A stretch of DNA of 64,000 bases, taken from positions 2,619,515 to 2,683,514 of the forward strand of contig CP170648.1 in NCBI GenBank assembly GCA_042919575.1, given 5' to 3'. The DNA is from Stenomitos frigidus ULC029. Its GTDB lineage: Bacteria; Cyanobacteriota; Cyanobacteriia; Leptolyngbyales; Leptolyngbyaceae. The notes under the pieces were generated by a model. That model saw only the letters and a program-made list of their open reading frames with translations. It searched no databases and was not told where the DNA came from. Each line of letters opens with the position of its first letter. The first letter of the stretch is position 1. Of the stretch, positions 1 through 48,207 are shown piece by piece. Both the position numbers and the translations under genes were made by a program.

Positions 1-203
1 CGGACGGGAACCGCTAAACGAGGTTCTGTCGCTAATTTGCTAGACAACGAATTGGAGGACATTCTCCTAGTGGTTCGTTCCACCGAGCCTGCGCGTCATG
101 GCTGGGAAGATCAATTTCGCTTGCTGGCACAAGGCGACGAGCCATCCCTTGACACCACAACGGCACTCCTTACCACCTGGGACGAGTGGGAGTGGGAGTC
201 ATG
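1..203 (+). CDS. 3' end of a CDS running in from upstream; unknown product (ends ...TTWDEWEWES*)
   Basis: Open frame from position 1 to a TGA at 201-203. Absent from the ORF track because it is incomplete. Confidence 0.3.
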
Positions 204-209
204 AATGAA

Positions 210-437
210 TTACATTGATTCAAACTGACCTGTAAAGCCATCCAGCGTCAGGCACTCGTCCTGAAACGACTCTGCATCGCTGACATCTTCGACTTCAAAG
301 GTCATAATCCGTCGTTCATCATCTTTCATCTTTTTAGTAGCAAGCGGTTTGACCCCGTACTTCTTCACGATCGCGTTAAACGCCGTTGCATACTTCTGCC
401 AACTCTCAGCCGAACAGTAAATCGTCACAAGCCACAT
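210..437 (-). CDS. small DUF1330-like alpha/beta-barrel protein
   Basis: 75 aa. Order and spacing of MWLVTIY...KKYG...ERRIMTFEVED fit the DUF1330 pattern. Confidence 0.4.
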   Translation of the reverse strand: MWLVTIYCSAESWQKYATAFNAIVKKYGVKPLATKKMKDDERRIMTFEVEDVSDAESFQDECLTLDGFTGQFESM

Positions 438-473
438 TTTGGTTCATTTTTGGGGTGTAGTAGTGATGATAGG

Positions 474-605
474 CGATCGACTGACCCACATCCCATCTGC
501 ACCCATCTACACACCGCAATTAATTGACGCAAGCTCGATCGTTTAAGCTTCTGTAGGCTCTCTTGCGTTGAAGGCAGACGAAGCAAAAACGCCTTAAAGC
601 GATCG
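474..605. repeat. 132-nt dispersed repeat, copy A, bounded by HIP1 sites
   Basis: About 91% identical to 3135-3267. Core ...ctgacccacatcc...taattgacgcaagctcgatcgtt...gcttctgtaggctctcttgcgttgaaggcagacgaagc... Confidence 0.7.
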
Positions 606-638
606 CTCGTTTACCGCTCTTTAGAAATCTACAATGGC

Positions 639-663
639 GCTGTTATCGTTACAGGAAGCGCGA
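639..663. repeat. 25-nt perfect direct repeat (gctgttatcgttacaggaagcgcga), left copy
   Basis: Identical 25-mer at 1388-1412. The two copies flank the antitoxin/PIN cassette. Confidence 0.8.
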
Positions 664-756
664 TCGTCGTCTCACTCCACACTCAAATTCCCCATTACCA
701 TAGACTCAACTGAACTTTTTCTGACCGTACTGAAATAAGGCAGCGCTAAAGAGAAA

Positions 757-987
757 ATGACTACAGAGACAGAGATTCTACAAACCATCGCCCAAATGCC
801 AGAGCCTCTTAAGCAAGAACTCCTGCACTATGCAAAAGCGCTGCTTGAAAGCCATTCAACGCCTGATGCTCTAGCTATGCAAGCGGAAGAACCTGCGAAG
901 CGAGGCGGGCTTGGCATCTGGAAAGGAAAAATTTGGGTTGCGGATGACTTTGATGCGCCGCTAGAAGATTTTAAGGACTATATGTAA
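757..987 (+). CDS. type II antitoxin (DUF2281-like), partner of the PIN toxin
   Basis: 76 aa. Stop overlaps the start of the downstream PIN gene (TAATG). Typical vapB-like position. Confidence 0.6.
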   Translation: MTTETEILQTIAQMPEPLKQELLHYAKALLESHSTPDALAMQAEEPAKRGGLGIWKGKIWVADDFDAPLEDFKDYM

Positions 988-1373
988 TGGATGTGCTGTT
1001 AGATACCCATGCTTTTCTCTGGTATTTTCAAGACAGCGAACAATTAAGCGCTGAAGCAGCAGAGATCCTTGAAGATACGAGTAATACGCTCTTTTTGAGT
1101 ATCGCCAGTTTATGGGAGCTTGCAATTAAAGTTGGCTTAGGAAAACTTGAACTCCAGAAGCCGTTTCATGAACTGCAAGAAGTTTTGCATCAGCTTGCGA
1201 TTCAGATTCTTCCCATTACCTTTGCTGACACAGAATGTTATCTCGATCTGCCGCTTCACCATCGAGATCCATTTGACCGGATGCTGATTGCACAGGCTAT
1301 GACTCACTCGTTGGTTATCATCAGTCAAGATAAACAGTTTGATGCGTACGCAACTAAACGAGTATGGGCTTAA
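987..1373 (+). CDS. vapC: PIN-domain ribonuclease toxin (VapC family)
   Basis: 128 aa. Starts DVLLDTHAFLWY (first catalytic Asp), with acidic residues at PIN positions. Translationally coupled to the antitoxin. Confidence 0.75.
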   Translation: MDVLLDTHAFLWYFQDSEQLSAEAAEILEDTSNTLFLSIASLWELAIKVGLGKLELQKPFHELQEVLHQLAIQILPITFADTECYLDLPLHHRDPFDRMLIAQAMTHSLVIISQDKQFDAYATKRVWA

Positions 1374-1387
1374 AGTAAAGCGATCGT

Positions 1388-1412
1388 GCTGTTATCGTTA
1401 CAGGAAGCGCGA
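1388..1412. repeat. 25-nt perfect direct repeat, right copy
   Basis: Identical to 639-663. Confidence 0.8.
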
Positions 1413-1519
1413 GCGCCGCATCATCCCGCCAACCTAAATCCAAGATAATCGTTTGCGAAAGCCGCCTTAAGTTGAATGTATCCATAGGCGATCGATGTCC
1501 CTAATATGACTGCGGCAGC

Positions 1520-3130
1520 ATGCTCAAAAAGATAAACGCTTCAGCATTGGTCGATCGCCTACAGTCTTTGCGTCCTTCCAAGCAGACAATGCTTTCTGGT
1601 TTGAGACGGAGCTTAATCGTTCCCATCATTTTAGTTGGCGTATATGTGGTGTTTCCGCTGCTTCGGGATGGGATTCCTTTGAGTCCACAGCAGCGAGTCG
1701 AACCGCTGAAACAACGCATCAATGACTTAGATAAACAAATCAAAGTGTCGCCTACAGCGACAGATCTCAAAGAGATTGCCACGCTAGAAAAAGGTCGCAT
1801 TGATTCTGAAAACACCATTCGAACGAGCTTGTTTCAAGCAGTGGGCGGATTGCTAGTATTTGTCACACTCTACATTTCCTGGTTGACACTCAAAGCAAAT
1901 GAAGCGAAGCAAGTTGCAGAGCGCTTTAGCAAGGCGGTAGAACAACTAGGAAGCGACAACATTCATGTACGCTTGGGCGGCATTTTTATGCTGGAACAAG
2001 TTGCGAAGGATGCAGAAGAAAAGTATTACTGGCAGGTGATGGAAACGCTGACTTCGTATGTAAGAGTGCGATCGCCCTATCCAACAAAAGCTACTAAAAC
2101 GCATTCATCTTTTGTGCAGGCTGCGATCAAATCAACCCAAACCAGCGAACCTCAAACTAGTGAAGCCATTCTACCGCTGTCAGCCGATATCCAAGCCGTG
2201 ATGACCGTCCTCGCTCGACGCAAGCACACTTACGGGCAGCGACTTGAACCTCATCGACTCGATTTACACGGAGTCGATTTGCACCAATTGCGACTTTCTC
2301 CGCCAGCCCAGTTATACGGGGTTGATCTTTCAGGAGCCAATTTACAGGGCGCACAACTGGATGGAGTAATCCTGCAAGCAGCAGTCTTTGAGGGAGCAGT
2401 TCTGCAAAAGGCTTTTCTCAACAAAGCAAATTTGTATGAAGCGAATTTCAACAGAGCGAATCTTCAAGAGGCACGACTTCAGTACGCTGACTTACGACGG
2501 AGTTCCTTGGAAGCAGCAAATTTTAAGCACGTACTGCTTGATAGTGCCGATTTACGGGGTTCATCTTCTAATGGAGTCAAGTCACGTATACAAGAACAAC
2601 TGAGCCTATTTGGAGCATATTTAAACGGAGCAAATCTACAGAGTGCATATCTTCCTAGAGCTAACTTTCAAAGAGCTTGGCTAGTTGGCGCTAACTTGAA
2701 AGATGCATTCTTGGGTGGAGCAATTCTGGAGCAAGCCATTCTTGATAATGCTGACCTTAGTGGAGCAGACCTTACTAGCGTGAAGCTACAAAACAGCTCT
2801 CTCTGGACAGCAAATTTACAAGCGGTAAATCTGAGGAGCGCGAATCTGGAAGGAGCACTTCTCAGAGAAACAAATCTGCGAGGTACTAAATTTAGAGAAA
2901 TTGATCCGCAACAGTCATCTCTGATTGGAGTACGAAACGCAGTTGGTTTAACTTGGGAACAACTCGACGAAGCCGCTCTCAAAGGTGAAGGAGCGATCTT
3001 GCCAGATTATCTGCCTCCACGATCGCAACAGCCTCCTACAGAAACGGCTCGATCGCCACATTCAAAGGAAATACTTACCGCTACTCTCAACGCAATTAGG
3101 GTCTTAGCAGCGAGTTACAAGAGCGAATAA
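1520..3130 (+). CDS. membrane-anchored pentapeptide-repeat protein
   Basis: 536 aa. N-terminal hydrophobic helices, then a long run of A(D/N)Lxx pentapeptides (ANLQGAQLDG...). Confidence 0.8.
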   Translation: MLKKINASALVDRLQSLRPSKQTMLSGLRRSLIVPIILVGVYVVFPLLRDGIPLSPQQRVEPLKQRINDLDKQIKVSPTATDLKEIATLEKGRIDSENTIRTSLFQAVGGLLVFVTLYISWLTLKANEAKQVAERFSKAVEQLGSDNIHVRLGGIFMLEQVAKDAEEKYYWQVMETLTSYVRVRSPYPTKATKTHSSFVQAAIKSTQTSEPQTSEAILPLSADIQAVMTVLARRKHTYGQRLEPHRLDLHGVDLHQLRLSPPAQLYGVDLSGANLQGAQLDGVILQAAVFEGAVLQKAFLNKANLYEANFNRANLQEARLQYADLRRSSLEAANFKHVLLDSADLRGSSSNGVKSRIQEQLSLFGAYLNGANLQSAYLPRANFQRAWLVGANLKDAFLGGAILEQAILDNADLSGADLTSVKLQNSSLWTANLQAVNLRSANLEGALLRETNLRGTKFREIDPQQSSLIGVRNAVGLTWEQLDEAALKGEGAILPDYLPPRSQQPPTETARSPHSKEILTATLNAIRVLAASYKSE

Positions 3131-3134
3131 GGTA

Positions 3135-3267
3135 GCGATCGACTGACCCACATCCGATCCGCACCGATCCACACACTGCAAGTAATTGACGCAAGCTCGA
3201 TCGTTCAGGCTTCTGTAGGCTCTCTTGCGTTGAAGGCAGACGAAGCGAAAACGTCCTAAGGCGATCG
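3135..3267. repeat. 132-nt dispersed repeat, copy A'
   Basis: About 91% identical to 474-605. Confidence 0.7.
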
Positions 3268-3285
3268 CGGTGCTGATTCAACGTT

Positions 3286-3474
3286 TCAGGTTTGTCTATC
3301 TTGTGACAAGCGTTTCACTTGACCCGATGATAAGGCTCGTTGCAGCATCGTCAGCGCTGTAATGTCGCGTAGATTGCAGTTGCCATCAAAGTACTGACAC
3401 AATGCCTGCTCCGCTTCAGCCGTTAGATAACCACGACCGATCGCCTTTTGCACAACCTGATTGACCGGACTCAT
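3286..3474 (-). CDS. small hypothetical protein (62 aa)
   Basis: ORF divergent from mutS2. No recognisable motif. Confidence 0.3.
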   Translation of the reverse strand: MSPVNQVVQKAIGRGYLTAEAEQALCQYFDGNCNLRDITALTMLQRALSSGQVKRLSQDRQT

Positions 3475-3731
3475 GATGCTTCCTTTTGCTAATCTTCATG
3501 AACCTAGTATGAAGGTCGCCCTCAGCAAGCAGTGTGACCGTTAAACCGTGTAACGTGTGATGCGCTGGAACGCAATGAGTGACGGCAACGCGATCGCAGC
3601 GTGACCAAAATGGAAGCGATCGGTGATCTCACACACACAGCCAGCGATCGTCCCCACCCTCTTTTACTAACGTTCGTGTCGCAGTGCCTAAGAACTCCCT
3701 AAAATGAAGAGAGTAATCCCCTTGACGCAAT

Positions 3732-6377
3732 TTGATCCAAGCTGAAACCCTTGAACTTTTGGACTGGTCGCGGCTTTGCCAGCACCTCTCGACCTTTGCC
3801 GCTACCAAGTTAGGCGCGATCGCGGCTCGTCGTCTCCGTATCCCCGACACACAAGCAGAAACGCTAACCCTGCTGGCACAAACGCAGGAAGTGTATGCGC
3901 TTGAAAATCGTCTCAGCACCGGGCTAAAGTTTGACGGCATTACCGACATTGGCGAGTCATTAGAACGGGCAGAACGCCGGGCATTGCTGTCGGGCGAAGA
4001 ACTGCTAGCGATCGCGACCACACTCGCTGGTATGCGTCAGCTCCGGCGCGTCATCGACAACCAACCCGATCTCTTGGTGCTAAACGCGCTGATGCAAGAC
4101 CTGCGAACCTATCCAGAGTTGGAGCAAGAAATTCATCGCTGCATTGACGATCGTGGGCAAGTTGCCGATCGTGCGACACCCAAGTTGACAGGCATTCGAG
4201 AGCAGCAAAAACAATTGCGCGATCGCGTTTACAGCACCTTACAAAGTATCTTGCAGCGCAAAGCAAACGCGGTGCAGGAAAGCTTGATCACCCAGCGGGA
4301 AGGACGCTTTGTCATCCCCGTTAAAGCACCGCAAAAAGACGCGATTCCGGGCATTGTCCACGACACTTCTATGAGCGGTGCAACGCTTTACATCGAGCCA
4401 CAAGCCACCGTCAACTTAAACAATCAACTACGCCAGCTTCAGCGCCAGGAACAGGCGGAAGAAGAAGCCGTGCGTCAAGCGCTGACTGATCAGGTCGCCG
4501 TCGTGAAGCCTGATTTAGAGAGACTGCTGGCGATCGCGACGACCCTTGACCTCGCCACAGCCCGCGCTCGTTACAGTTTGTGGCTAGAAGCAAATCCGCC
4601 CCGATTTGTCACCAGGAACCCGGAGAGTGCGTCTGTCACACCCGAATCGATCGTCCTTCGCAATCTGCGGCATCCGCTCCTCATCTGGCAGCAGCAGCAT
4701 GAGCAGGGTCGCCCCGTCGTGCCGATCGATCTCGTCATCCAGCCACACATTCGCGTCGTTGCGATTACTGGACCCAACACTGGCGGCAAAACCGTTACCC
4801 TCAAAACCCTTGGTCTCGCTGTACTGATGGCAAAGGTCGGGCTATATGTGCCTGCCCGCGAACCCGTTGAGTTGCCCTGGTTCGACCAGGTGCTGGCAGA
4901 CATTGGTGATGAGCAGTCCCTAGAGCAAAGCCTGTCTACCTTTTCAGGACACATCCGGCGGATTAGTCGCATTTTGGCAGCGTTGGAGGAGAGGGGAGAG
5001 GAGAGAGGAGAGAGGGGTGAAAAGGAAGAAAGAGTAGAGGGAGCAGAGGAGGCGATGGGGACATGGGGGGATGATGAGCAAGACCGAACCGCAACTCAAA
5101 ACTTAGAACTCAAAACTCAAAACTCAAAACTCAAAACTCCTCTACCCCACTCCCTCGTCCTTCTCGACGAAGTTGGCGCTGGCACCGATCCCTCTGAAGG
5201 CAGTGCGTTGGCGATCGCCCTACTGAACCACTTGGCTGATCATGCAGGCTTGACTATTGCAACGACTCACTTTGGGGAACTCAAAGCGCTGAAATATCAG
5301 GACGATCGGTTTGAGAATGCCTCTGTCGAGTTTGATGATGTGTTGCTATCGCCTACCTATCGTCTGCTGTGGGGCATTCCAGGACGATCGAATGCGTTGA
5401 CGATCGCTCGTCGGTTGGGGTTGGATGCAGACGTGGTGGAGCAAGCGCAAACTCTGGTCGGTGGTGCTTCAGAAGATGTGAATCAGGTGATTGCTGGTCT
5501 CGAAGCCCAGCGTCGTCGCCAAGAAACCAAGTCCCAGGAGGCAGCACAGCTCTTAGAAAGTGCTGAACGTCTCCATCGCGAACTGTCTCGGAAAGCGGTG
5601 TCACTGAAGGAGCGAGAGCAGTCCTTACAGCAGGCGCAAGAACAGGCAGTCCAAGCAGCGATCGCTCAGGCAAAGAGTGAAATTGCCCAGGTCATCCGTC
5701 AGCTACAGCAGGGACCCATCTCCGCACAAGCGGCACAGCAGGCAACCGATTCACTGCATCAGCTTGCCGAGAATCGTCTGCCCTCACGCCAACCCAAACC
5801 GCCCAAGCCAGGGTTTCGTCCTCAGGTGGGCGATCGCGTTCGCATTCCGCGTCTCGGTCAAACGGCTGAAGTGCTAACAGCTCCCAACGATGATGAGGAA
5901 ATTACCGTTCGCTTTGGGCTAATGAAAATGACCGTGCCGATCGACGACGTGGAATCGTTAGATGGGGAAAAAGCGGTTAAAAAGCAGTCAGCAGTCAGCA
6001 GTCAGCCAGCAGCAGTGAGCGGTCAGGGCGCAGGCATCAGAAGTCAGGAGCCACTCAAAACTCAAAACTTAAGCCTTAAACCTTCAAACGCGCCGCCTGA
6101 TACTCAAAACCCCACTTCCGATACCCCTATCATCCGCACGTCTCACAATACGATCGACATTCGGGGCAGCCGCGTTGCCGATGCCGAGCCGATGATGGAG
6201 CAGGCGATCGCCCAGGCGTATGAGAGTGGCGTGCTATGGATTATTCACGGGCATGGGACGGGCAAATTGCGTCAAGGCGTACATGCTTTCTTGCAACACC
6301 ATCCTCAAGTCGAACGGTATGCATTGGCAAGCCGTGCGGATGGCGGTGCAGGTGTAACGTTGGCTTACCTGCATTAA
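3732..6377 (+). CDS. mutS2: endonuclease MutS2 (MutS domain plus C-terminal Smr domain), TTG start
   Basis: 881 aa. Walker A GPNTGGKT, then LLDEVGAGTDP. C-terminal Smr motif IHGHGTGKLR. Carries an in-frame low-complexity insertion at about 4984-5145. Confidence 0.9.
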   Translation: MIQAETLELLDWSRLCQHLSTFAATKLGAIAARRLRIPDTQAETLTLLAQTQEVYALENRLSTGLKFDGITDIGESLERAERRALLSGEELLAIATTLAGMRQLRRVIDNQPDLLVLNALMQDLRTYPELEQEIHRCIDDRGQVADRATPKLTGIREQQKQLRDRVYSTLQSILQRKANAVQESLITQREGRFVIPVKAPQKDAIPGIVHDTSMSGATLYIEPQATVNLNNQLRQLQRQEQAEEEAVRQALTDQVAVVKPDLERLLAIATTLDLATARARYSLWLEANPPRFVTRNPESASVTPESIVLRNLRHPLLIWQQQHEQGRPVVPIDLVIQPHIRVVAITGPNTGGKTVTLKTLGLAVLMAKVGLYVPAREPVELPWFDQVLADIGDEQSLEQSLSTFSGHIRRISRILAALEERGEERGERGEKEERVEGAEEAMGTWGDDEQDRTATQNLELKTQNSKLKTPLPHSLVLLDEVGAGTDPSEGSALAIALLNHLADHAGLTIATTHFGELKALKYQDDRFENASVEFDDVLLSPTYRLLWGIPGRSNALTIARRLGLDADVVEQAQTLVGGASEDVNQVIAGLEAQRRRQETKSQEAAQLLESAERLHRELSRKAVSLKEREQSLQQAQEQAVQAAIAQAKSEIAQVIRQLQQGPISAQAAQQATDSLHQLAENRLPSRQPKPPKPGFRPQVGDRVRIPRLGQTAEVLTAPNDDEEITVRFGLMKMTVPIDDVESLDGEKAVKKQSAVSSQPAAVSGQGAGIRSQEPLKTQNLSLKPSNAPPDTQNPTSDTPIIRTSHNTIDIRGSRVADAEPMMEQAIAQAYESGVLWIIHGHGTGKLRQGVHAFLQHHPQVERYALASRADGGAGVTLAYLH
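4984..5145 (+). repeat. in-frame composite repeat inside mutS2: GA-rich tract then (AACTCAAAAC/AAAACTC) x about 5
   Basis: gaggagaggggagaggagagaggagagagg... then aactcaaaacttagaactcaaaactcaaaactcaaaactcaaaactcc. Encodes EERGEERGERGE...LKTQNSKLKT between Walker A and Walker B. Confidence 0.8.
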
Positions 6378-6429
6378 TTAGTAAGCCTAAACAAGTAAGG
6401 ATGCGTTGTTGTGATAGACAACGTACTAG

Positions 6430-7479
6430 TTAACAATGCGGTGGTTCTTCATAAAATTCTTTGAGGGTGACTTGCCAGTATCCTGAAGAGGGCGGTTGGT
6501 TACTGGAGACACTCAACAAAGTCCTGTACATAGCGAATTGACCAGTTTGGTGCTCGTGAACAGCAATAGAAGCCGTCTGCAACTCAGTCGTTCCAGAGTT
6601 TCTCCCACCATAAAATTGCGCCTCAACCGCTTGCCAATCCGGCCAATGATAAGCCTTTCTGTGCTCGCTACGATCGTCCTCAATGCGTTGGAGTCGCTCG
6701 TCGTGCGCCTTTCTACGCTCGCTGCGATCGTCCTTAAGATGTTGGGGTAGCTCATCACGAAAAACCTTGCCGCCGCGATCGTCCTCAATAAGCTGGCGTG
6801 GCTTATCGTGTTCATTAAGAGAATGACTTTTCAGGGCGTTGCGTAACGCGTCGGGGAGCCTAGGAATGATCTCAGCTGCCATTGGTTGATCTGGGGGATG
6901 TCCAGGGAAAGGGTATGGGGGACGTAGAGTGCACTGGTAAAGGATCGTGACTGCTCCACTGATGAGACTGACCTCATACGCTGCTGCATCCGTGTCGGGG
7001 TAATGAGGAACCCATATCCCTAAATTTGGCGGTGGAGGACAGTATCTTGAATAGATTCGCAAAGTTTGCTGAGACAGGTCACACAGAGTATGAGTCGTTC
7101 CACCTGGTAGCCACAGCGGTTGCGATCGCATCAGCAGTTGACCGTCTGTCGTCGCATAGGCGGCAATGGCATCACCTTGGATTGCCCACAAAATATGGTC
7201 GCTGACGCGTAAGGGATAGGCATTGTCTTTCGATTCCCACTCAATCGCACCCGACGCGATCGAGCGGCATACGAGCTTGCCCTCAATGGAGCAGTAAAAC
7301 AAGCTGGATTCGGGCAAGTCAACGGCAAGCGGAGGCGGTAAAGCCTGGGTAACTGCGGCTCTAGGAGCAGGGTCAAGCAAGGTAGTTGGTGGTGGTGGCA
7401 GATCTTTAACCACAGGTTGTTTGCCTCCAAGTTGGAGTCTGTCGATCGCGCTTCGCCAACGGTTCAACCATTTCCACAT
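6430..7479 (-). CDS. hypothetical protein with Pro-rich N-terminus and DDRSE(H/R)RKA repeats
   Basis: 349-aa ORF. Flanked by a 15-nt direct repeat (gtaaggatgcgttgt) at 6396-6410 and 7498-7512. Confidence 0.5.
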   Translation of the reverse strand: MWKWLNRWRSAIDRLQLGGKQPVVKDLPPPPTTLLDPAPRAAVTQALPPPLAVDLPESSLFYCSIEGKLVCRSIASGAIEWESKDNAYPLRVSDHILWAIQGDAIAAYATTDGQLLMRSQPLWLPGGTTHTLCDLSQQTLRIYSRYCPPPPNLGIWVPHYPDTDAAAYEVSLISGAVTILYQCTLRPPYPFPGHPPDQPMAAEIIPRLPDALRNALKSHSLNEHDKPRQLIEDDRGGKVFRDELPQHLKDDRSERRKAHDERLQRIEDDRSEHRKAYHWPDWQAVEAQFYGGRNSGTTELQTASIAVHEHQTGQFAMYRTLLSVSSNQPPSSGYWQVTLKEFYEEPPHC

Positions 7480-7751: not shown

Positions 7752-8798
7752 CTAACCGCTAAAGTGCTGAAAACCTCGCTCCAGGGTTAGCGGTTGATCG
7801 GGTCGCGTTCCGGTTGCATCCACTAGCCAAACCGCTGGGTTTTCGGTGATCGTGCCAACGATCGCTGCGCCACGACCCAACTGTCGCACCAATGTCTGCG
7901 CCCTTGCCAACGGCAAACACAGGATCAACTCAAAATCTTCACCGCCATACAGTGCCCACTCCAGCGCTTGTTCTGTGCCCACCCATGGCTGCAACGCGGA
8001 CGGCAGTGGAATCTGACTCCGCTCAATGCTTGCGCCCACCTCGCTAGCCCGACCGATCTGCACGATCGCGTCAGCTAGTCCGTCGCTGCTGTCCATGCCT
8101 GCGATCGTCAGTGGCAATTGCGCGTCACCTGTTGCCCAAAGCAGATTAATAACATCCAATCGAGGCTTGGGGCGCTGATGTGCTTGGATTAGGGTTGCAC
8201 GATCGCGCTCACTTAACGATCGTCCCAATTCAGGATGCAGCAACAATTCCAATCCTGCCTTTGAAGCTCCGTGGATACCTGTTGCGACGATCGCGTCTCC
8301 TGGTTGAGCGGTCGAGCGGCGAATCAGATGGTTGGGTACGGCTTCTCCAAAGGCAGTAATGGCGATGGAAAGCACGGGCGATCGACAGAGATCACCACCC
8401 ACGATCGGCGTTTCGTACTGGTTCAAGCACTCCGTTAGCCCGCGATACAGCCCTTCCACCCAAAGCACCGGAGTGTCTCCAGGCAGTCCTAGACCGACTG
8501 TAATGCCTAAGGGCGTTGCTCCCATTGCTGCCAGATCAGAAAGATTTGCCGCTGCCGCTCTCCACCCTGCATCTGCCGCCGAGGTCGTCCGATCGCTAAA
8601 ATGCACGCCATCAATTAAAACATCTGTAGTAATGACCAACGATCGCCCCGGATGGGTGGTCAATACCGCTGCATCGTCTCCCACAAAGTCGGGTGGACAA
8701 AACGACTGCACCAGCTTGAGTAGACCTTGTTCACCGATTTCTTGAACGTTCAAGGCTGTCTTATTGAGTTTTATTCCAGTGTTCAGCACCACAAGCAA
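7752..8798 (-). CDS. thiL: thiamine-monophosphate kinase
   Basis: AIR-synthase-related fold motifs (GDDAAVL...ITTDVLIDGVHF...GGDL). True start likely downstream of the ORF-track start, which overlaps the upstream gene. Confidence 0.75.
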   Translation of the reverse strand: MLVVLNTGIKLNKTALNVQEIGEQGLLKLVQSFCPPDFVGDDAAVLTTHPGRSLVITTDVLIDGVHFSDRTTSAADAGWRAAAANLSDLAAMGATPLGITVGLGLPGDTPVLWVEGLYRGLTECLNQYETPIVGGDLCRSPVLSIAITAFGEAVPNHLIRRSTAQPGDAIVATGIHGASKAGLELLLHPELGRSLSERDRATLIQAHQRPKPRLDVINLLWATGDAQLPLTIAGMDSSDGLADAIVQIGRASEVGASIERSQIPLPSALQPWVGTEQALEWALYGGEDFELILCLPLARAQTLVRQLGRGAAIVGTITENPAVWLVDATGTRPDQPLTLERGFQHFSG

Positions 8799-9645
8799 TT
8801 AAGATTGACGCATCTTGTAACCAGATCGTCAAATCGGTTAGAGCAGCAAAATCGAGCAAGTCTTCGCTCAAATCTTCTAGAAGCGGTAAGGGTAAGGCAG
8901 TAATTTGCGATCGCACGGCTGGGTCGATCGTGCCAAATAGTCGGGTTAGTTGACGCAAAATGAGCGTTGCGCCCTCTTCTTGTCGTCCTTCTTGTCGTCC
9001 TTCTTGCCGTCCTTCCTGAAGAATCTCCTGGTAAATGACTGACTCCCGCATCATGCCCTCCCGAAATACCTGTTGTATCAGCGCCTTCTTAAAGCGTAGC
9101 CCTGCCAAGAGTTGCGTATAGGCGGAAACTTGCTCCCGCTGCTGGGTTGATTCTATTTTACTAATTTGCTGGGCAACCTGTTGGAGTAGCTGCTCTGGAG
9201 TCGTTGCCGCCGCTAATGCTGCCAGCGGTAAGAGTGCGATATCGTTAAGAAAGAGTGTTGGGTCTTGTTGCCACAAACACATCACATTGTACTCGTGGCG
9301 CGTCGATTCAACGGCAAAGACGGTTTGGATATCGCTCGTCCTTGTGGGTGGCAGGAGCAAGACAACTACTTGAGTGATCGGCAAGCGGTGAAGCCGATAC
9401 AGTCGTACCCAGTAGTCCAACATTCGTAGAGGCAGGGGCGGATCAGACTGAAGCTTGACCTGAAATTCCAGGTGCAGGATGCGCTCCTGGGTTCGTAGCA
9501 AAGTGACAGCATCGGCTCGAATGGGTTCAATGCTCAATTCAGTTTTCAGTATCGTCACTGAGGGTTGCGGCTCACCCAAAATCCAGGCAGCAAAGCGATC
9601 GGGATGTTTCTGTGCCAGCAGCTTACAAAGGTTATCAAAGGACAT
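8761..9645 (-). CDS. Rpn-family recombination-promoting nuclease / putative transposase (DUF4351, PD-(D/E)xK)
   Basis: N-terminus MSFDNLCKLLAQKHPDRFAAWILGEP is typical of the cyanobacterial Rpn/DUF4351 family. Contains a GRQEGRQEGRQE tandem repeat from a 12-nt x3 repeat at about 8985-9023. Confidence 0.65.
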   Translation of the reverse strand: MSFDNLCKLLAQKHPDRFAAWILGEPQPSVTILKTELSIEPIRADAVTLLRTQERILHLEFQVKLQSDPPLPLRMLDYWVRLYRLHRLPITQVVVLLLPPTRTSDIQTVFAVESTRHEYNVMCLWQQDPTLFLNDIALLPLAALAAATTPEQLLQQVAQQISKIESTQQREQVSAYTQLLAGLRFKKALIQQVFREGMMRESVIYQEILQEGRQEGRQEGRQEEGATLILRQLTRLFGTIDPAVRSQITALPLPLLEDLSEDLLDFAALTDLTIWLQDASILIACGAEHWNKTQ

Positions 9646-9682
9646 GGCATTGAAACCTCAGCACGGCTTGCTGCAAAACCGA

Positions 9683-10033
9683 TCACTGTTTGCCGACAAA
9701 GCTGAAGGCACGGAAGTGGAGGGCTTGCTGTTCGATACGGTTGGCAAGACGATCGCACACTAAATTGCACAACTCAAAAATCAGGTCATCTTCAACGCTG
9801 TAATACGCTAATGTGCCCTTGCTACGGCGACTGAGGATGCCTGCCTGCATCATGACCTTCAGATGCTTAGAGACATTTGCCTGACTGGTATCGGTTGCCT
9901 CCACCAAATCTTGTACGCATTTCTCACCATCACGGAGAAGGTTGAGAATCCGCAGGCGCATCGGCTCACCTAGTACGCTGAAGTATTCAGCAACTTGTAA
10001 AACAACTTCTTGCGAAGGCTTTGCAGATTTCAT
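9683..10033 (-). CDS. ArsR/SmtB-family transcriptional regulator
   Basis: 116 aa. Winged-HTH motif LRLRILNLL...CVQDL...SQANVSKHLKVM. Confidence 0.8.
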   Translation of the reverse strand: MKSAKPSQEVVLQVAEYFSVLGEPMRLRILNLLRDGEKCVQDLVEATDTSQANVSKHLKVMMQAGILSRRSKGTLAYYSVEDDLIFELCNLVCDRLANRIEQQALHFRAFSFVGKQ

Positions 10034-10230
10034 GCAAATTTAATATGAGGTGCAGTGATCCCCAGATCTTAGCCACTCGACCGCTACATAGCAATAGAGT
10101 ATTTGATGACAATGCCAAGATTCTTTAGGATTTCATCATTTTCTGAGTGATTTGGCTCTTTGTTTGAGTGATGCTTTCCAGTCGCTTACCGTTATTGAGC
10201 AAGAGCGGTCGCGAACCGAGCATGGGGCGC

Positions 10231-10779
10231 TCAGTCTGGATTCAGGCGCAGCAGCAACTGACCGTACTCGATCGGTTCACCATTTTGCACCAGAATTTCA
10301 ACAACCTCGCCGCCAATTTCTGCTTCTAGCTCGTTCATCAGCTTCATGGCTTCGATAATGCAAACGGTTTGTCCTTTACGAATGCGATCGCCCACTTCCA
10401 CAAAGGGTGGTTCATCGGGAGACGCAGCGCGGTAGAAGGTGCCCACCATTGGTGAATTCACCTCAATCAGGCGACGATCGCTTTTGCTGTCTCGTAAGGG
10501 CGCATCGTTAAGCGGTAAGTTTGGTACAGACGGTGTGGCAGCGCTTTGTGCGGCCTGTTTAGCCTCAGAGTCGGTGCGGCTATCACCCACTCTTGGCAAT
10601 GATGCGCCTGCCTCAACCGCCTGACGACGATCGCCATCGGTAGCATAAAGTCGCTCCTCGACCCGAATACCACGATGCACCGTGAGTTCAAAATCAGTGC
10701 TTTTTAAGGTTAGTTCTGTAATATCGGTCTGGTCGATCGCGGCTAAAAGCTCGCGGAGTTCATTTAAATCCAGTGACAC
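10231..10779 (-). CDS. accB: acetyl-CoA carboxylase biotin carboxyl carrier protein
   Basis: C-terminal biotinyl domain with the EAMKLMNE motif. Ala/Pro-rich linker. Confidence 0.9.
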
Positions 10780-10875
10780 AATGACTGTAAACCTCAGAAG
10801 GGGCTAGGGGTTAGGAGAAAGGCTAAAGGATAAACGCTAAAGGCTAAAACAAGTTTCATCCTTATATCCCTTCGC

Positions 10876-11436
10876 TTACTGCTCTCTACCCAAATAAGTA
10901 TCGTTACGAGTATCAACTTTGATGCGTTCTCCAATCGTGATGAAGAGAGGCACCATGATTTGAGCACCCGTTTCGACGATCGCGGGTTTGGTTCCGCCTG
11001 TTGCCGTATCACCCTTCACGCCGGGATCAGTTTGGGTTACTTCCAGCACAACAGAGTTCGGCAATTCTACTTCTAGCACTTGCTCACCCCAACGGATGAC
11101 GTTCACTTCCATGCCTTCTTTAAGGTATTTCACGCGATCGCCAATCTGTTTAGCACTGAGACGTCCCTCCTCATAGGTCTCCATTTCCATAAAGACGAAG
11201 TCATCTCCATCTTTATAGGTATGCTGCATCGTGTTTTTTTCCAGGTTTGCCTGGGGAACGCTTTCACCCGCTCGAAACGTCCGTTCCATGACATTTCCAG
11301 TCTGGACGTTTTTGAGCTTGGTGCGTACAAAGGCAGACCCTTTACCGGGCTTGACGTGCAAAAATTCGATAACTCGCCAGACTGATCCGTCTAGCTCAAT
11401 GCTTACGCCTGATCGAAAGTCATTACTAGAGATCAT
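10876..11436 (-). CDS. efp: elongation factor P
   Basis: [43 protein letters not shown] is the canonical EF-P N-terminus. Start moved to the internal Met at 11436. Confidence 0.9.
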
Positions 11437-11781
11437 GAGTATGTGTATCGGGGAAAATGTTCGGCATCTCATTGTACCGCTCAGGGGTAAACCACGTTAA
11501 GCAGAGGGAGGACTAAAGATGAAGGGAAAAAGGTTTTAGACCTTATGTCAGTTTAAGCCAGCCACGGATGAGGCTTCTGTCTCTATGCCCTGGAGGCTCT
11601 TCCCGACTGACCCTCTGCCCTACTTTTGCCTGTGTGACCCTGCTCTATGGCAAGATTAATGAGAGCAACTGACGGTTTGTAGCTTTTGCTGCGATCGCCC
11701 GCTCTCGACCGTTGAGTGGGCAAACAACACTCAAACAGACGTCCGCTTTTGAGCCGCTAACTTAGCAAGCAGTAACCAGAC

Positions 11782-12921
11782 ATGGAACGACAAGGCTTTG
11801 ACCGCTTCAAACTTGACCGCTTTAAGTTTGACCACTTGAGGCACTGGCTAAAAACAGGAGCAACCCTTTTGCTCATGATGATCCTGTCTTTGGGGTTAAG
11901 TGCGGCTGCTAAACCGACCAATATTATGCCTGCTGGCAACCCCATTACCGATGGCAAAGCGTTATTGCGCTACGCTTTGCCGATCGACAATGCACCTGTG
12001 CGCGAACTGCAAGGCAGCTTAGAAGATATTGCCACACAGCTCAGGGCAAATCGACGCTGGGGCGCGATCGCGGGTGACGTGAAGAGAGCAAGCTGGATTT
12101 TGCGCGATAAAGAACCAGCGATCCTTGCCAGTGTGCCAGAAGCGAAGCAAGCCGAAGCACAAGCCATACTGGCTAAAATCAAGGACGGCATTGCGCCTCT
12201 GCAAGAGTCTATCGAAGCAAAGGATAAAGAACAAACCTTTCAACAGCGATCGGATCTGCTGAGCTTGGTTGGACAGCTTGAAGAAAGCATGGTGCAAGCC
12301 TTCCCTTTTGAGGTGCCTGCCGCATACAACAGTCTGCCGCAGCTTAAAGGTCGCGCCACGATCGCCTTTACAACGAACAAAGGCAAGATCACAGCCGTTG
12401 TCGATGGTTACAGCGCTCCAGTCACCGCTGGCAACTTCGTTGATTTAGTCCAACGCGGTTTTTACGATGGCTTACCCTTCACCCGTTCTGAAGAATCCTA
12501 CGTGCTGCAAATCGGCGATCCGCCTGGAAAAGACGTTGGCTTTATCGACCCTCAAACGAAAAAGTATCGCGCCATTCCGTTAGAAGTGTTGGTGCAGGGC
12601 GATGTTGAACCCACTTATGAGATCACGTTAGAGGATGCAGGACGCTACAAAGACCAGCCTGTATTGCCTTTCTCGTCCTACGGTGCGCTGGCAATGGCGC
12701 GTCCTGGTGAAGACCCTAACGGTGGTTCGTCCCAGTTTTTCTTCTTTTTGTTTGAGCCAGAGTTAACGCCAGCCGGGCGAAATTTGCTGGATGGTCGCTA
12801 CTCTGTGTTTGGCTACGTCATTGAAGGCAAAGAGGTGCTGGAGCAACTGAAAGCTGGAGACAAGATTGAATCCGCTAAAGTGATTCAGGGGCTGGATCAA
12901 TTGGTGGAGCCAGTTGCCTAA
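11782..12921 (+). CDS. cyclophilin-type peptidyl-prolyl isomerase with N-terminal lumenal domain (TLP40/CYP38-like)
   Basis: Signal peptide or TM, a helical N-domain, then a C-terminal cyclophilin fold (FTRSEESYVLQIGDP...GALAMARPGEDPNGGSSQFFF). Confidence 0.75.
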   Translation: MERQGFDRFKLDRFKFDHLRHWLKTGATLLLMMILSLGLSAAAKPTNIMPAGNPITDGKALLRYALPIDNAPVRELQGSLEDIATQLRANRRWGAIAGDVKRASWILRDKEPAILASVPEAKQAEAQAILAKIKDGIAPLQESIEAKDKEQTFQQRSDLLSLVGQLEESMVQAFPFEVPAAYNSLPQLKGRATIAFTTNKGKITAVVDGYSAPVTAGNFVDLVQRGFYDGLPFTRSEESYVLQIGDPPGKDVGFIDPQTKKYRAIPLEVLVQGDVEPTYEITLEDAGRYKDQPVLPFSSYGALAMARPGEDPNGGSSQFFFFLFEPELTPAGRNLLDGRYSVFGYVIEGKEVLEQLKAGDKIESAKVIQGLDQLVEPVA

Positions 12922-22005: not shown

Positions 22006-23751
22006 ATGCAAGTACAGGATCTGCTAGAGCGTTACCAGAACGGCGAACGAAACTTTGCTCAGATTGACCTTAGCAGCGCCAACCTAAGTGGAGCCAACCT
22101 GCGTGATGCTGACCTCACAGGCGCTGACATGACAGGTGCTAATTTAAGCTGGGCTTTTTTGAGCCGCGCTAATTTGACAGGAGCCTGCCTGAGGCGGGCA
22201 GACCTTCGCAGTGCGTCACTCAATAACGCCGTGCTGAACCAGGCAATCCTGAGCGGTGCTAATCTCAGCAAAGCAGATTTGCGGATGGCGCAGCTAGAAA
22301 CGGCTGATCTAAACTGGGCAGTGCTTCAGGAAGCTGACCTTAGTGGCGCTAACCTCCAGGCAGCCAAGCTCGATCAGGTCAACCTTGAACGGGCAAAGTT
22401 AAGTAACAGTTGCCTGATTGCAGCAGAATTAATGGAAGCCAACCTGCGTCGTGCCAACCTCACTAGCGCCCAACTCGATCGCGCAAACCTGCGGGAGGCA
22501 CATCTAGAAGAAGCAAACCTGCGAGAGGCATCACTGATTGGCGCAAACTTGATCGAAGCCAACTTAAACGGCGTGTATCTACGACAGGCTAATCTCACCG
22601 AAGCAGACCTGCATCGCGTTGTCTTGACTGGGGCAGACATGAGTGAAGCAATTCTTACTAATGCTGACCTCAGCCGAGCCAATCTGACAGGAGCCTACTT
22701 GCTCAAAGCCAGTATGAGTAAAGCCCAGCTTTTACGGGCAAACCTGCAAGATGTCTATCTCTTAAGGGCGGATCTCAACGGAGCGAACCTGCGTGGAGCC
22801 GATCTGCGACGAGCGGATTTAAGTGGAGCATATCTCAGCGATACGTCCTTGAGCGAAGCCGACCTCAGCGATGCTTACTTGCTGGAAAGCCATCTCATTC
22901 GCACCAATTTAGACGGGGCACAGATGACCGGCTGCTGCATTGCCAATTGGCACCTGGAGAACACAGATTGCTCTAGAATCAACTGCCGCTACGTGTTTAC
23001 TGGGTTTGACTACACGACTAAAAACCCTGCCGATCGCTACCCAGTCGGGCGCGATCTGGAAGCAGGCGAACTAGAGCAGCATTATCAGCAAGACAATGCC
23101 GTGGTTGAGGTCTATTTTACCGAAGCGCCGAATTGGGAAGCCTTTGCGTTTACATTAGCGCAGCTTGATCTTGAAGAAAACGCGCTGGGACTAACGATAA
23201 AAGCTTATAAGCCATCAGACGATAACTACCTGATTCAGTTAAAGGCAACGCGCCCAGTGAATGCCAAAGCGGTAACGCGACGCATCTTTCAGCTTTATCC
23301 AAAAATTTTGCAGCAGTTGCTCACGCATCGAACCAAAATTCTGAGCCTGTTAGCGATCGCGCCTCAGACCACTCAACCCAACTTGTCCCTGGAACCGTCC
23401 CAAGTTAACCGATCCGCACCAGAGACACCCTCGAACGATCGCCGCATCCGGCTTTACCAGGAAGTTGTGCGGCAAATCCAGCACATTATGATGACTCAGG
23501 CTCCTGAACAATTTGTGCAGAGTGTGCAGCAACTACTTGAATATCTCAACCAGCAGGGCATTGCGACAGAAGCGATCCAGAAGAAAGTGATTAGTCAGGT
23601 CATTACACAGCGCGCTAAACAAGACAAACGCTTTTGCGACCACATCCAGCGCTGGGAGAAAACGGCTCCTGACGCTGCCCGATCGTCCACTGTGGGCCAG
23701 GCAATGCGTTTTGCGATCGCGCAGTTGTGGGCTGACACCAAACAAAGCTAA
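22006..23751 (+). CDS. pentapeptide-repeat protein with unique C-terminal domain
   Basis: About 300 aa of ANLxx repeats after MQVQDLLERYQNGERNF, then a roughly 250-aa non-repeat domain. Confidence 0.8.
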   Translation: MQVQDLLERYQNGERNFAQIDLSSANLSGANLRDADLTGADMTGANLSWAFLSRANLTGACLRRADLRSASLNNAVLNQAILSGANLSKADLRMAQLETADLNWAVLQEADLSGANLQAAKLDQVNLERAKLSNSCLIAAELMEANLRRANLTSAQLDRANLREAHLEEANLREASLIGANLIEANLNGVYLRQANLTEADLHRVVLTGADMSEAILTNADLSRANLTGAYLLKASMSKAQLLRANLQDVYLLRADLNGANLRGADLRRADLSGAYLSDTSLSEADLSDAYLLESHLIRTNLDGAQMTGCCIANWHLENTDCSRINCRYVFTGFDYTTKNPADRYPVGRDLEAGELEQHYQQDNAVVEVYFTEAPNWEAFAFTLAQLDLEENALGLTIKAYKPSDDNYLIQLKATRPVNAKAVTRRIFQLYPKILQQLLTHRTKILSLLAIAPQTTQPNLSLEPSQVNRSAPETPSNDRRIRLYQEVVRQIQHIMMTQAPEQFVQSVQQLLEYLNQQGIATEAIQKKVISQVITQRAKQDKRFCDHIQRWEKTAPDAARSSTVGQAMRFAIAQLWADTKQS

Positions 23752-47211: not shown

Positions 47212-48207
47212 TTAGTCATGCGTCGAGCCGTCGGGCATAGTTGCACCCTGGAGGTTTGCACCACTGAGATTCGCGCTGCTGAGTTCAGCTTTTGCCAGGT
47301 TAGCGTTGGTCAGGTTGGCATCGCGGAGATCAGCACGACCGAGGTAGGCTTCAATGAGGCTTGCATCGGTCAAATTGACACTTTGGAGTGTAGTGCGGCT
47401 CATACTTGCTCGATTGAGCCGCGATCGACACATAATTGCCTGAGCCAGGTTGGCTTTGCTCAGGTTGGCATCGGTCAGGTTAGCATCCGTCAGATTAACG
47501 TTTTTGAGTGTTGCTTCGGTCAAGTTAGCGCGCTCTAGCTTGGCACTAACCATGTTTGCCTGACTCAAATCAGCTTCGGTCAGATTAGCATCAGTCAAAA
47601 AGCAACTTTGCAGCGTGGCTCCGATTAAGTTTGCTTCGGTAAGATTGGCTTCTCGCAGACTGGTTTCAGTGAGGTTAGCACGACGAAGGTCGGCTTTGGT
47701 CAAATCAGCTCCGCTAAAGTTTGCACCGCGCAAGTCAGCATTGCGGAGGTCAACACCGCGCAAATTGGCACCTTCATAGCAGCGTTTTTCATAGCGCAGG
47801 TTAGCTCCACGCAGGCAGGCTCCGCGCAGGTTGGCGCTGCCGAGATTGACGTTTCGCAAATCAGCGCTGATCAGGTTGGCATCGAGCAGGATTGCCAGGG
47901 TGATATCGGCACCGCGTAGATCAGCGCCATAGAGGATGGCACCATGTAAGTCGGCATCGCGCAGTTTGGCGCTCATCAGATCAGCTTGACTCAGATTGGC
48001 TCCACTAAGACGGGTTCCAGCCAGGTTTGCCTTGCTCAGGTTGGCGCGGTTGAGGTATGCCAGAACCAGATTTGCGCCACGTAGATCGGTGCCTGTGAGG
48101 TCTGCGCCAATGAGATCGGCTCCGCCCAGATCTGCGCCACAAAGGTTTTCGCCCCGAAAGTCGGTTTCACCTGCCTGGTAGCGTTGCAGTAGCTCGATCG
48201 CGTCCAT
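47212..48207 (-). CDS. pentapeptide-repeat protein
   Basis: MDAIELLQRYQAGETDF, then ADL/ANLxx repeats through to the C-terminus. Confidence 0.8.
   Translation of the reverse strand: MDAIELLQRYQAGETDFRGENLCGADLGGADLIGADLTGTDLRGANLVLAYLNRANLSKANLAGTRLSGANLSQADLMSAKLRDADLHGAILYGADLRGADITLAILLDANLISADLRNVNLGSANLRGACLRGANLRYEKRCYEGANLRGVDLRNADLRGANFSGADLTKADLRRANLTETSLREANLTEANLIGATLQSCFLTDANLTEADLSQANMVSAKLERANLTEATLKNVNLTDANLTDANLSKANLAQAIMCRSRLNRASMSRTTLQSVNLTDASLIEAYLGRADLRDANLTNANLAKAELSSANLSGANLQGATMPDGSTHD

Follow-up and report, generated by a model that had tools for sequence, protein, structure and literature searches.

The question raised by this locus is why a short intergenic sequence should stand twice, in direct orientation, around a small group of genes. 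The 64,000-nt stretch of Stenomitos frigidus ULC029 analysed here (contig CP170648.1, positions 2,619,515 to 2,683,514; hereafter the window) carries such a repeat at 473–606 (copy A) and again at 3135–3268 (copy B), and for this pair the original prediction, made from the letters alone, had offered a small RNA family, a miniature inverted-repeat transposable element (MITE) or recombination scars delimiting an inserted 2.5-kb segment. Our answer is that the repeats are probably ordinary intergenic spacer, standing on both sides of an inserted 2.53-kb accessory module, and thus a scar of recombination; this answer is drawn from the comparison of sequences, mainly with the same locus in close relatives.

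Each copy is 134 nt long, and the two align without gaps at 122 of 134 positions (91.0% identity, 12 mismatches, blastn E = 2.7e-45), with a start-to-start distance of 2662 nt and a longest identical core of at most 38 nt. An 18-mer from the repeat core occurs exactly twice in the window, where 0.03 occurrences would be expected. The claim of a two-copy repeat with an identity of about 91% is therefore borne out, with limits slightly wider than those first given. Both copies begin with the octamer GCGATCGA and end with the octamer GCGATCGC, which is HIP1. The original prediction regarded both copies as bounded by HIP1 sites, and this holds exactly for the right ends (GCGATCGC at 599–606 and 3261–3268), while the left ends (GCGATCGA at 473–480 and 3135–3142) agree with HIP1 at only seven of eight positions. 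In other words, the 134-nt unit spans exactly one HIP1-type octamer to the next.

What this unit is in its original setting can be seen in relatives, whose syntenic loci were retrieved from 80 species representatives with the N-terminal 400 residues of MutS2 (encoded at 3732–4931). The closest two are Stenomitos sp. JTS-RE299 (MutS2 98% at the amino acid level) and Leptolyngbya sp. FACHB-321 (96%), and the next are S. frigidus ULC18, ES-bin-22 and Tildeniella nuda. Both JTS-RE299 and FACHB-321 have one copy of the unit each, at the same locus, and segment 607–3134 is missing from both. Window 217–606 aligns with positions 9147–9534 of the JTS-RE299 locus and window 3135–6112 with positions 9403–12414, so that both alignments include the single copy of that strain (9403–9534), the first as its last part and the second as its first part, and FACHB-321 behaves in the same manner. 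In the four-way alignment, the left flank of the relatives is that of copy A, which is continuous with the upstream region of a conserved hypothetical gene of 75 aa (210–437, minus strand), and their right flank is that of copy B, which is continuous with the 3' flank of a conserved hypothetical gene of 62 aa, here called X (3286–3474, minus strand). X adjoins mutS2 in all Stenomitos and Tildeniella relatives. Where only one copy exists, the unit is no more than the spacer that separates these two genes, directly downstream of X and directly upstream of the 75-aa gene. Since the one copy of the relatives is flanked as copy A is on its left and as copy B is on its right, segment 607–3134 together with one spacer copy is a lineage-specific insertion relative to the nearest relatives. 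The synteny comparison, which had been proposed as a check on whether the segment is absent in relatives, thus gave support to the recombination-scar explanation. The relatives also bear on the coding potential of the unit: open reading frames (ORFs) that cross it have no family match and the frames are broken by a 2-nt deletion in JTS-RE299 and a 1-nt deletion in FACHB-321, so its non-coding status, claimed before for one copy, is supported for the unit.

The polarity and age of the event can be estimated from the same alignment. The spacer has about 20 private changes in FACHB-321 against 3–6 each in copy A, copy B and the JTS-RE299 copy; because of this, the duplication is younger than the split from FACHB-321, with the single-copy arrangement as the ancestral one. 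The identity between copies A and B (91.0%) is about the same as that between the JTS-RE299 copy and either copy A (89.6%) or copy B (90.3%). The identity between the window and JTS-RE299 is around 85–95% across the whole region, and no divergence step between the window and the relatives was found in the right flank beside copy B.

Both joints of the insertion coincide with HIP1-type octamers. At joint 1 (606|607), where the spacer ends and the insert starts, the octamer GCGATCGC at 599–606 is the same HIP1 that precedes the first 27 nt of the insert in T. nuda and in ULC18. HIP1 and the first ~50 nt of the insert (window 597–650) are contiguous in T. nuda (6128–6181 of its locus) and recognisable in ULC18, and on this ground the crossover of joint 1 lies inside a HIP1 octamer common to both parental contexts. 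At joint 2 (3134|3135), where the insert ends and the spacer starts again, the HIP1-like octamer GCGATCGA occupies 3135–3142. That both joints lie inside HIP1-type octamers would account for the duplicated unit running exactly from HIP1 to HIP1. There are 71 HIP1 and 266 CGATCG sites in the 64 kb; counted strictly, the chance of both joints abutting HIP1-type sites is 2.5e-6, and a looser count raises it to ~1e-3.

The inserted module (607–3134, plus strand, 2.53 kb) is made up of a short leader, vapB, vapC and a membrane pentapeptide-repeat gene, all on the plus strand, so the toxin–antitoxin (TA) cassette and the pentapeptide-repeat gene do lie between the copies, as had been stated. The antitoxin (757–987) is of the vapB type (DUF2281; NCBIfam TA_VapB, 85.5 bits versus a cutoff of 60), the toxin (987–1373) is a vapC-type PIN protein by family match, and the pentapeptide-repeat protein (1520–3130) has 536 aa and, towards its N-terminus, hydrophobic stretches that probably span the membrane. 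VapC and the pentapeptide-repeat protein each have a 100% identical counterpart among the proteins of the MAG Stenomitos frigidus ULC029. PADLOC gave no defence-system match for this cargo. GC content of the insert is 0.43–0.48 in most 400-nt windows, compared with 0.51–0.58 around it and a mean of 0.51 for the whole window. Window 749–2463 is colinear with L091, a 3.2-kb contig from another organism, at 79% identity over vapB, vapC and the pentapeptide gene, and because of this colinearity the cargo is a pre-existing module. In addition, vapB and its non-coding leader (window 634–981) are 90% identical to positions 6067–6414 of the ULC18 locus, where this TA part is located in the same island beside X and mutS2, whereas the X–mutS2 flanks of the two strains are only 72–77% identical; this contrast points to horizontal exchange of the TA part. 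Colinearity with L091, the difference in identity between the TA part and the flanks, and the lower GC content mark the cargo as a foreign and modular unit. As a separate observation, vapC of ULC18 is truncated (the equivalent of window 982–1270 is missing), leaving an orphan antitoxin.

Taken together, these results can be put into the following history. In the ULC029 lineage, the 2.53-kb module would have recombined into the spacer between X and the 75-aa gene in such a way that a full spacer came to stand on either side; illegitimate recombination, or recombination at microhomology, would have formed the joints at HIP1 sites, with no transposase or integrase taking part. By the route that we prefer, although we give it slightly less than an even chance, the module would have come on DNA of a related strain that already carried its own spacer, X and mutS2; homology would then anchor the right side and the left joint would form at HIP1. 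The other route, which is possible and somewhat less probable, is one event in situ: the DNA would have broken, or the template switched, at both HIP1 sites, and the spacer would thereby have been duplicated. After the insertion, copies A and B would have diverged neutrally by about 9%, and we would assign no function of their own to the two copies. Their one foreseeable effect would be to give RecA a substrate for deleting the module, a loss that VapBC addiction may counteract.

Inside the module there is a second, shorter repeat of 41 nt (r41), with one copy upstream of vapB (634–674, plus strand), where its core lies between CGATCG-type sites, and another downstream of vapC (1383–1423, plus strand). 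The core of r41 has around 23–29 nt, (C/T)GCTGTTAYCGTTRCAGGAAGCG, and is placed between CGATCG sites. Further copies are present in the ULC18 locus (6063–6102 and ~6517–6542) and in T. nuda (~6159–6181), which gives five copies in the data examined, two of them in the window, all near the TA cassette or the island. The upstream copy in ULC18 has CGATCG on both sides. The copy downstream of vapC is absent at that position in the homologous TA cassettes of L091 and of a further locus, L092; there, CGATCGC stands after vapC and runs straight into the sequence that lies 3' of r41 in the window, which makes it an empty site. Compared with the known SDR-like repeats, precise insertion at HIP1/CGATCG with empty sites was found for r41, while numerous dispersed copies were not found in these data, and r41 has the look of a mini-insertion of the SDR5 kind, here at HIP1/CGATCG of a Leptolyngbyaceae genome. 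In the literature, SDR-like (SDR5-type) repeats are reported only from Nostocaceae; SDR5 is inserted in HIP1 (Elhai et al. 2008, as cited in PMC4390886 and PMC5861425).

Another boundary at HIP1 is found to the right of the insertion. At the HIP1 at 3590–3597, the synteny with contig L089 (from ENA ERZ27253117) ends and the phylogenetic pattern of the window, JTS-RE299 and FACHB-321 changes. From 3599 to ~4130, to the right of this HIP1, there are 49 sites in 530 nt at which the two relatives have one state and the window another, and at several of these ULC18 and T. nuda have the state of the window; in the spacer and the X gene, by contrast, the window groups with JTS-RE299. The neighbourhood of the insertion locus is thus a recombination mosaic with a boundary at the HIP1 at 3590–3597.

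Several points weigh against the insertion history as we have told it. The tree of copy A, copy B and the JTS-RE299 copy is close to a trichotomy, with one derived site shared by A and B (570) and one site shared by B and JTS-RE299 (585); from this near-trichotomy, the insertion is roughly as old as the split between ULC029 and JTS-RE299. The 12 differences between A and B have no clean donor/recipient chimera pattern of the kind that a Campbell model would leave. The data do not tell apart a duplication in situ, the import of another orthologous spacer copy, and an early gain that JTS-RE299 later lost. For joint 2, no donor context was found in the loci examined, and for the pentapeptide gene the nearest homologues are only 60–83% identical, with no donor found. 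HIP1-type sites are frequent (CGATCG at 4.2 per kb), and as homology ends in a shared octamer, the position of a joint is only fuzzy. Moreover, with a 64-kb sample of a 6.3-Mb genome, a moderately repeated family is still formally compatible with what was seen.

Among other histories, the module could have been gained early, in the common ancestor of ULC029 and JTS-RE299, and then lost from JTS-RE299 by recombination between the spacers, leaving a copy that is possibly a mosaic. The near-equal distances among copy A, copy B and the JTS-RE299 copy agree with this, as do the states of the latter, which are common with copy A at 494, 515, 520, 594 and 598 and with copy B at 498, 504, 544, 546, 585 and 592, and it is established that recombination between direct repeats of 134 bp offers an easy route of deletion. 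However, most of these mixed states are ancestral, with FACHB-321 agreeing with JTS-RE299 at 8 of the 12 A/B differences; FACHB-321, as the outgroup, has the single-copy state, and two events are needed where one suffices, so we consider early gain and loss unlikely. Tandem duplication followed by deletions, suggested by the adjacency of X and a pentapeptide gene in L089, was rejected, as it needs four or more events. We also give a small chance to a more general idea, namely that neighbouring HIP1 pairs are entry points of a HIP1-directed insertion pathway, in which, through breaks or template switches at two HIP1 octamers, the interval between them is duplicated and foreign DNA ending in HIP1 is captured. 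Such a pathway would leave long target duplications around accessory cassettes, and at the same locus there are the nested SDR-like mini-insertion at CGATCG and two more synteny or recombination boundaries at HIP1. If it were general, HIP1 would have a concrete role in the acquisition of accessory genes.

A functional reason for the duplication, with the unit as a small RNA gene or as a cis-regulatory RNA, seems very unlikely. In its favour, the unit is non-coding, it directly precedes a conserved small gene, and an 8-bp inverted repeat, GACGCAAG and CTTGCGTT (526–569 and again 3188–3231), is invariant in all four sequences. This inverted repeat is the sole invariant structural feature in the spacer and has no covariation; precisely because it is invariant, it gives no evidence either way. 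A search of window 1–5000 with Rfam 15 at E <= 1 gave 0 matches, the fold z-scores were between -0.95 and +1.31 for both copies on both strands and for the conserved hairpin core in four genomes, and RNAalifold on both strands found one compensated pair among 27–38 predicted ones, with several broken (n = 4 sequences). A consensus scan detected no promoter-like or terminator-like sites inside the unit. In S. rutilans, Leptolyngbya BL-A-14 and Phormidesmis priestleyi, the region upstream of the 75-aa gene shows no conservation of the unit; in ULC18, ES-bin-22 and T. nuda, the unit is absent downstream of X, and its left third is highly variable in FACHB-321. The suggestion of a small RNA family consequently did not stand, and the structure and covariation analysis of the copies, proposed along with it, gave neither a significant fold nor covariation support. 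A conserved 5' region of the 75-aa gene was considered for the spacer as well and rejected, since the spacer is unconserved in three other genera; all that is shared upstream of the gene is a -10-like CCTAYSAT close to it, and this motif lies outside the repeat. Even less probable is a MITE-like element or HIP1-bounded cassette that inserted twice. The ends of the unit are palindromic HIP1-type octamers, which formally makes them inverted termini of 7 nt, and Nostocaceae are known to have short repeats (SDR5) that inserted at HIP1, but the ends have no inverted similarity past the octamer and no target-site duplication, the flanks of the two copies differ, and the flanks of the relatives indicate that both copies derive from one resident spacer. 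With no terminal inverted repeats beyond the HIP1 palindrome and no copies elsewhere in the searched collections, the suggestion of a MITE is not supported. The reading that we find least credible takes the repeats as attL and attR, left by the site-specific integration of an element. Direct repeats on either side of an accessory segment of low GC content, within a variable island, would suit it, and yet the 2.5-kb insert has no integrase or recombinase, there is no tRNA or tmRNA target near the repeats, and the repeats are 134 nt long and 9% diverged, with an identical core of not above 38 nt.

The search for further copies was made at several levels. There is no third copy in the 64-kb window (blastn-short), only orthologous copies were found in 93 related loci with 1.45 Mb in total (nhmmer; blastn-short on 88–93 loci), and plasmids have no copies (blastn). 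The 20-mer CTCTTGCGTTGAAGGCAGAC, conserved between the copies, had 0 matches in genome contigs and metagenome contigs, and the 20-mer TTGACGCAAGCTCGATCGTT, likewise conserved between them, had 0 matches in viral contigs. A metagenome match of TTGACGCAAGCTCGATCGTT was set aside as chance, being one sequence assembled twice, within an unrelated gene for a SIS-domain sugar isomerase. As for other repeats of the window, a 59-nt pair (49240 and 50020), examined in case it offered another such example, turned out to be internal to a coding gene, and two further coding regions with pentapeptide repeats (22050–22830 and 47290–48060) are the source of most other direct-repeat families and are unrelated to the 134-nt unit.

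The substitutions which had been described as compensatory-looking have a simpler explanation. The unit contains a 10-nt tandem direct sub-repeat, in which copies A and B differ in parallel at 494, 498, 504 and 508: the sub-repeat units of copy A (494–508) have CCCATCT twice and those of copy B (3156–3170) have CCGATCC twice, while JTS-RE299, with the likely ancestral state, has CCCATCC in one and CCGATC in the other. When polarised with JTS-RE299, there is one change in copy B and three in copy A, and each set makes the sub-repeat units more alike. As the sub-repeats are direct, changes in them cannot compensate each other by base pairing; in the predicted fold, their partner region is invariant, so that pairs are broken rather than compensated, and in FACHB-321 conservation is lacking across the whole of the sub-repeat region. 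The substitutions therefore run in parallel in a direct sub-repeat that is poorly conserved; they provide no evidence of RNA structure or of function, and short-patch template switching or local conversion between adjacent 10-mers would be a sufficient explanation for them.

The island downstream of X differs in each relative, with mazEF in JTS-RE299, with hicAB, a decayed vapBC and an LRR-Roc gene in ULC18, and with relE/parE, TPR and ATPase genes in T. nuda. This variety of TA-rich cargo, like the recombination mosaic beside the locus, speaks for the proposed insertion. On contig L089, positions 4536–6317 correspond to window 1448–3598 and have an X homologue (80% at the amino acid level) divergently beside a pentapeptide homologue, which is the closest full-length homologue (83% at the amino acid level in the N-terminal part) and stands on the other side of the X homologue, the order of X and its pentapeptide neighbour being permuted relative to the window. 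This adjacency may mean that the neighbourhood of X is a hot spot, or that the two genes travel together or are functionally paired. At the left end of the window, comparison of positions 1–210 with 8555–9135 of the JTS-RE299 locus shows that an AbrB/MazE-like antitoxin ORF ends at 204 and is directly followed by the 75-aa gene, and that in JTS-RE299 a MazF/PemK-like toxin gene (8791–9135) lies between the two, which the window and FACHB-321 do not have. On the other side of X, mutS2 has a hypervariable low-complexity insert at 4950–5200, rich in Glu, Arg and Gly, with 14-nt tandem repeats at 5093–5141; here, the identity to JTS-RE299 and FACHB-321 is 44–54%, compared with ~92% elsewhere in the gene.

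The 134-nt unit thus fails as a candidate RNA gene or mobile element. Its modest value is that of a clean natural example, in which relatives have kept the empty site, the cargo is a VapBC and pentapeptide module, both joints are of the HIP1 type and the interval from HIP1 to HIP1 is duplicated. What HIP1 does has been debated for a long time; enhancement of transformation and recombination by HIP1 is documented in the literature, recent work ties HIP1 to both processes, and cases such as this one could bear on whether HIP1 marks sites of gene gain.

Among known systems, the unit shares with the cyanobacterial small RNAs of Rfam (Yfr2, NsiR1) that it is a short non-coding intergenic repeat with more than one copy; unlike them, it matches no covariance model, shows neither a stable nor a covarying structure, lacks promoter and terminator, and is conserved only in two close genomes. 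With cyanobacterial MITEs and SDRs it shares the association with HIP1, and the nested r41 behaves as a mini-insertion between CGATCG sites, whereas the 134-nt unit has no sign of mobility or dispersal. A directly duplicated target around inserted DNA is also what transposons leave, although their target duplications have 2–14 bp instead of 134 bp, and here there is neither a transposase nor terminal inverted repeats in the insert. Insertion-duplication (Campbell-type) integration and homology-facilitated illegitimate recombination are reported from natural transformation (de Vries and Wackernagel 2002). Our locus resembles them in that resident direct repeats flank a foreign segment, with, by our preferred route, one homologous side and the other joint at microhomology, and differs in that no circular donor or donor strain was found, the copies are 9% diverged and a clean chimera pattern is missing. 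The closest parallels come from HIP1 itself: as cited in PMC4390886 and bioRxiv 10.64898/2026.06.24.733823, a 352-bp excision in smtB of Synechococcus PCC 6301 took place by HIP1-flanked illegitimate recombination (Gupta et al. 1993), excision is promoted by HIP1 (Robinson et al. 1997), and a plasmid recombined at HIP1 in PCC 7002 (Akiyama et al. 1998). Those are experimental deletions and plasmid recombination, while the present case is an insertion with a 134-bp duplication from HIP1 to HIP1, known from genome comparison alone. In common with them, it has joints at GCGATCGC-type octamers, no mobile-element genes and a HIP1-rich cyanobacterial genome, and HIP1-associated illegitimate recombination, as already described, fits as the explanation of the joints.

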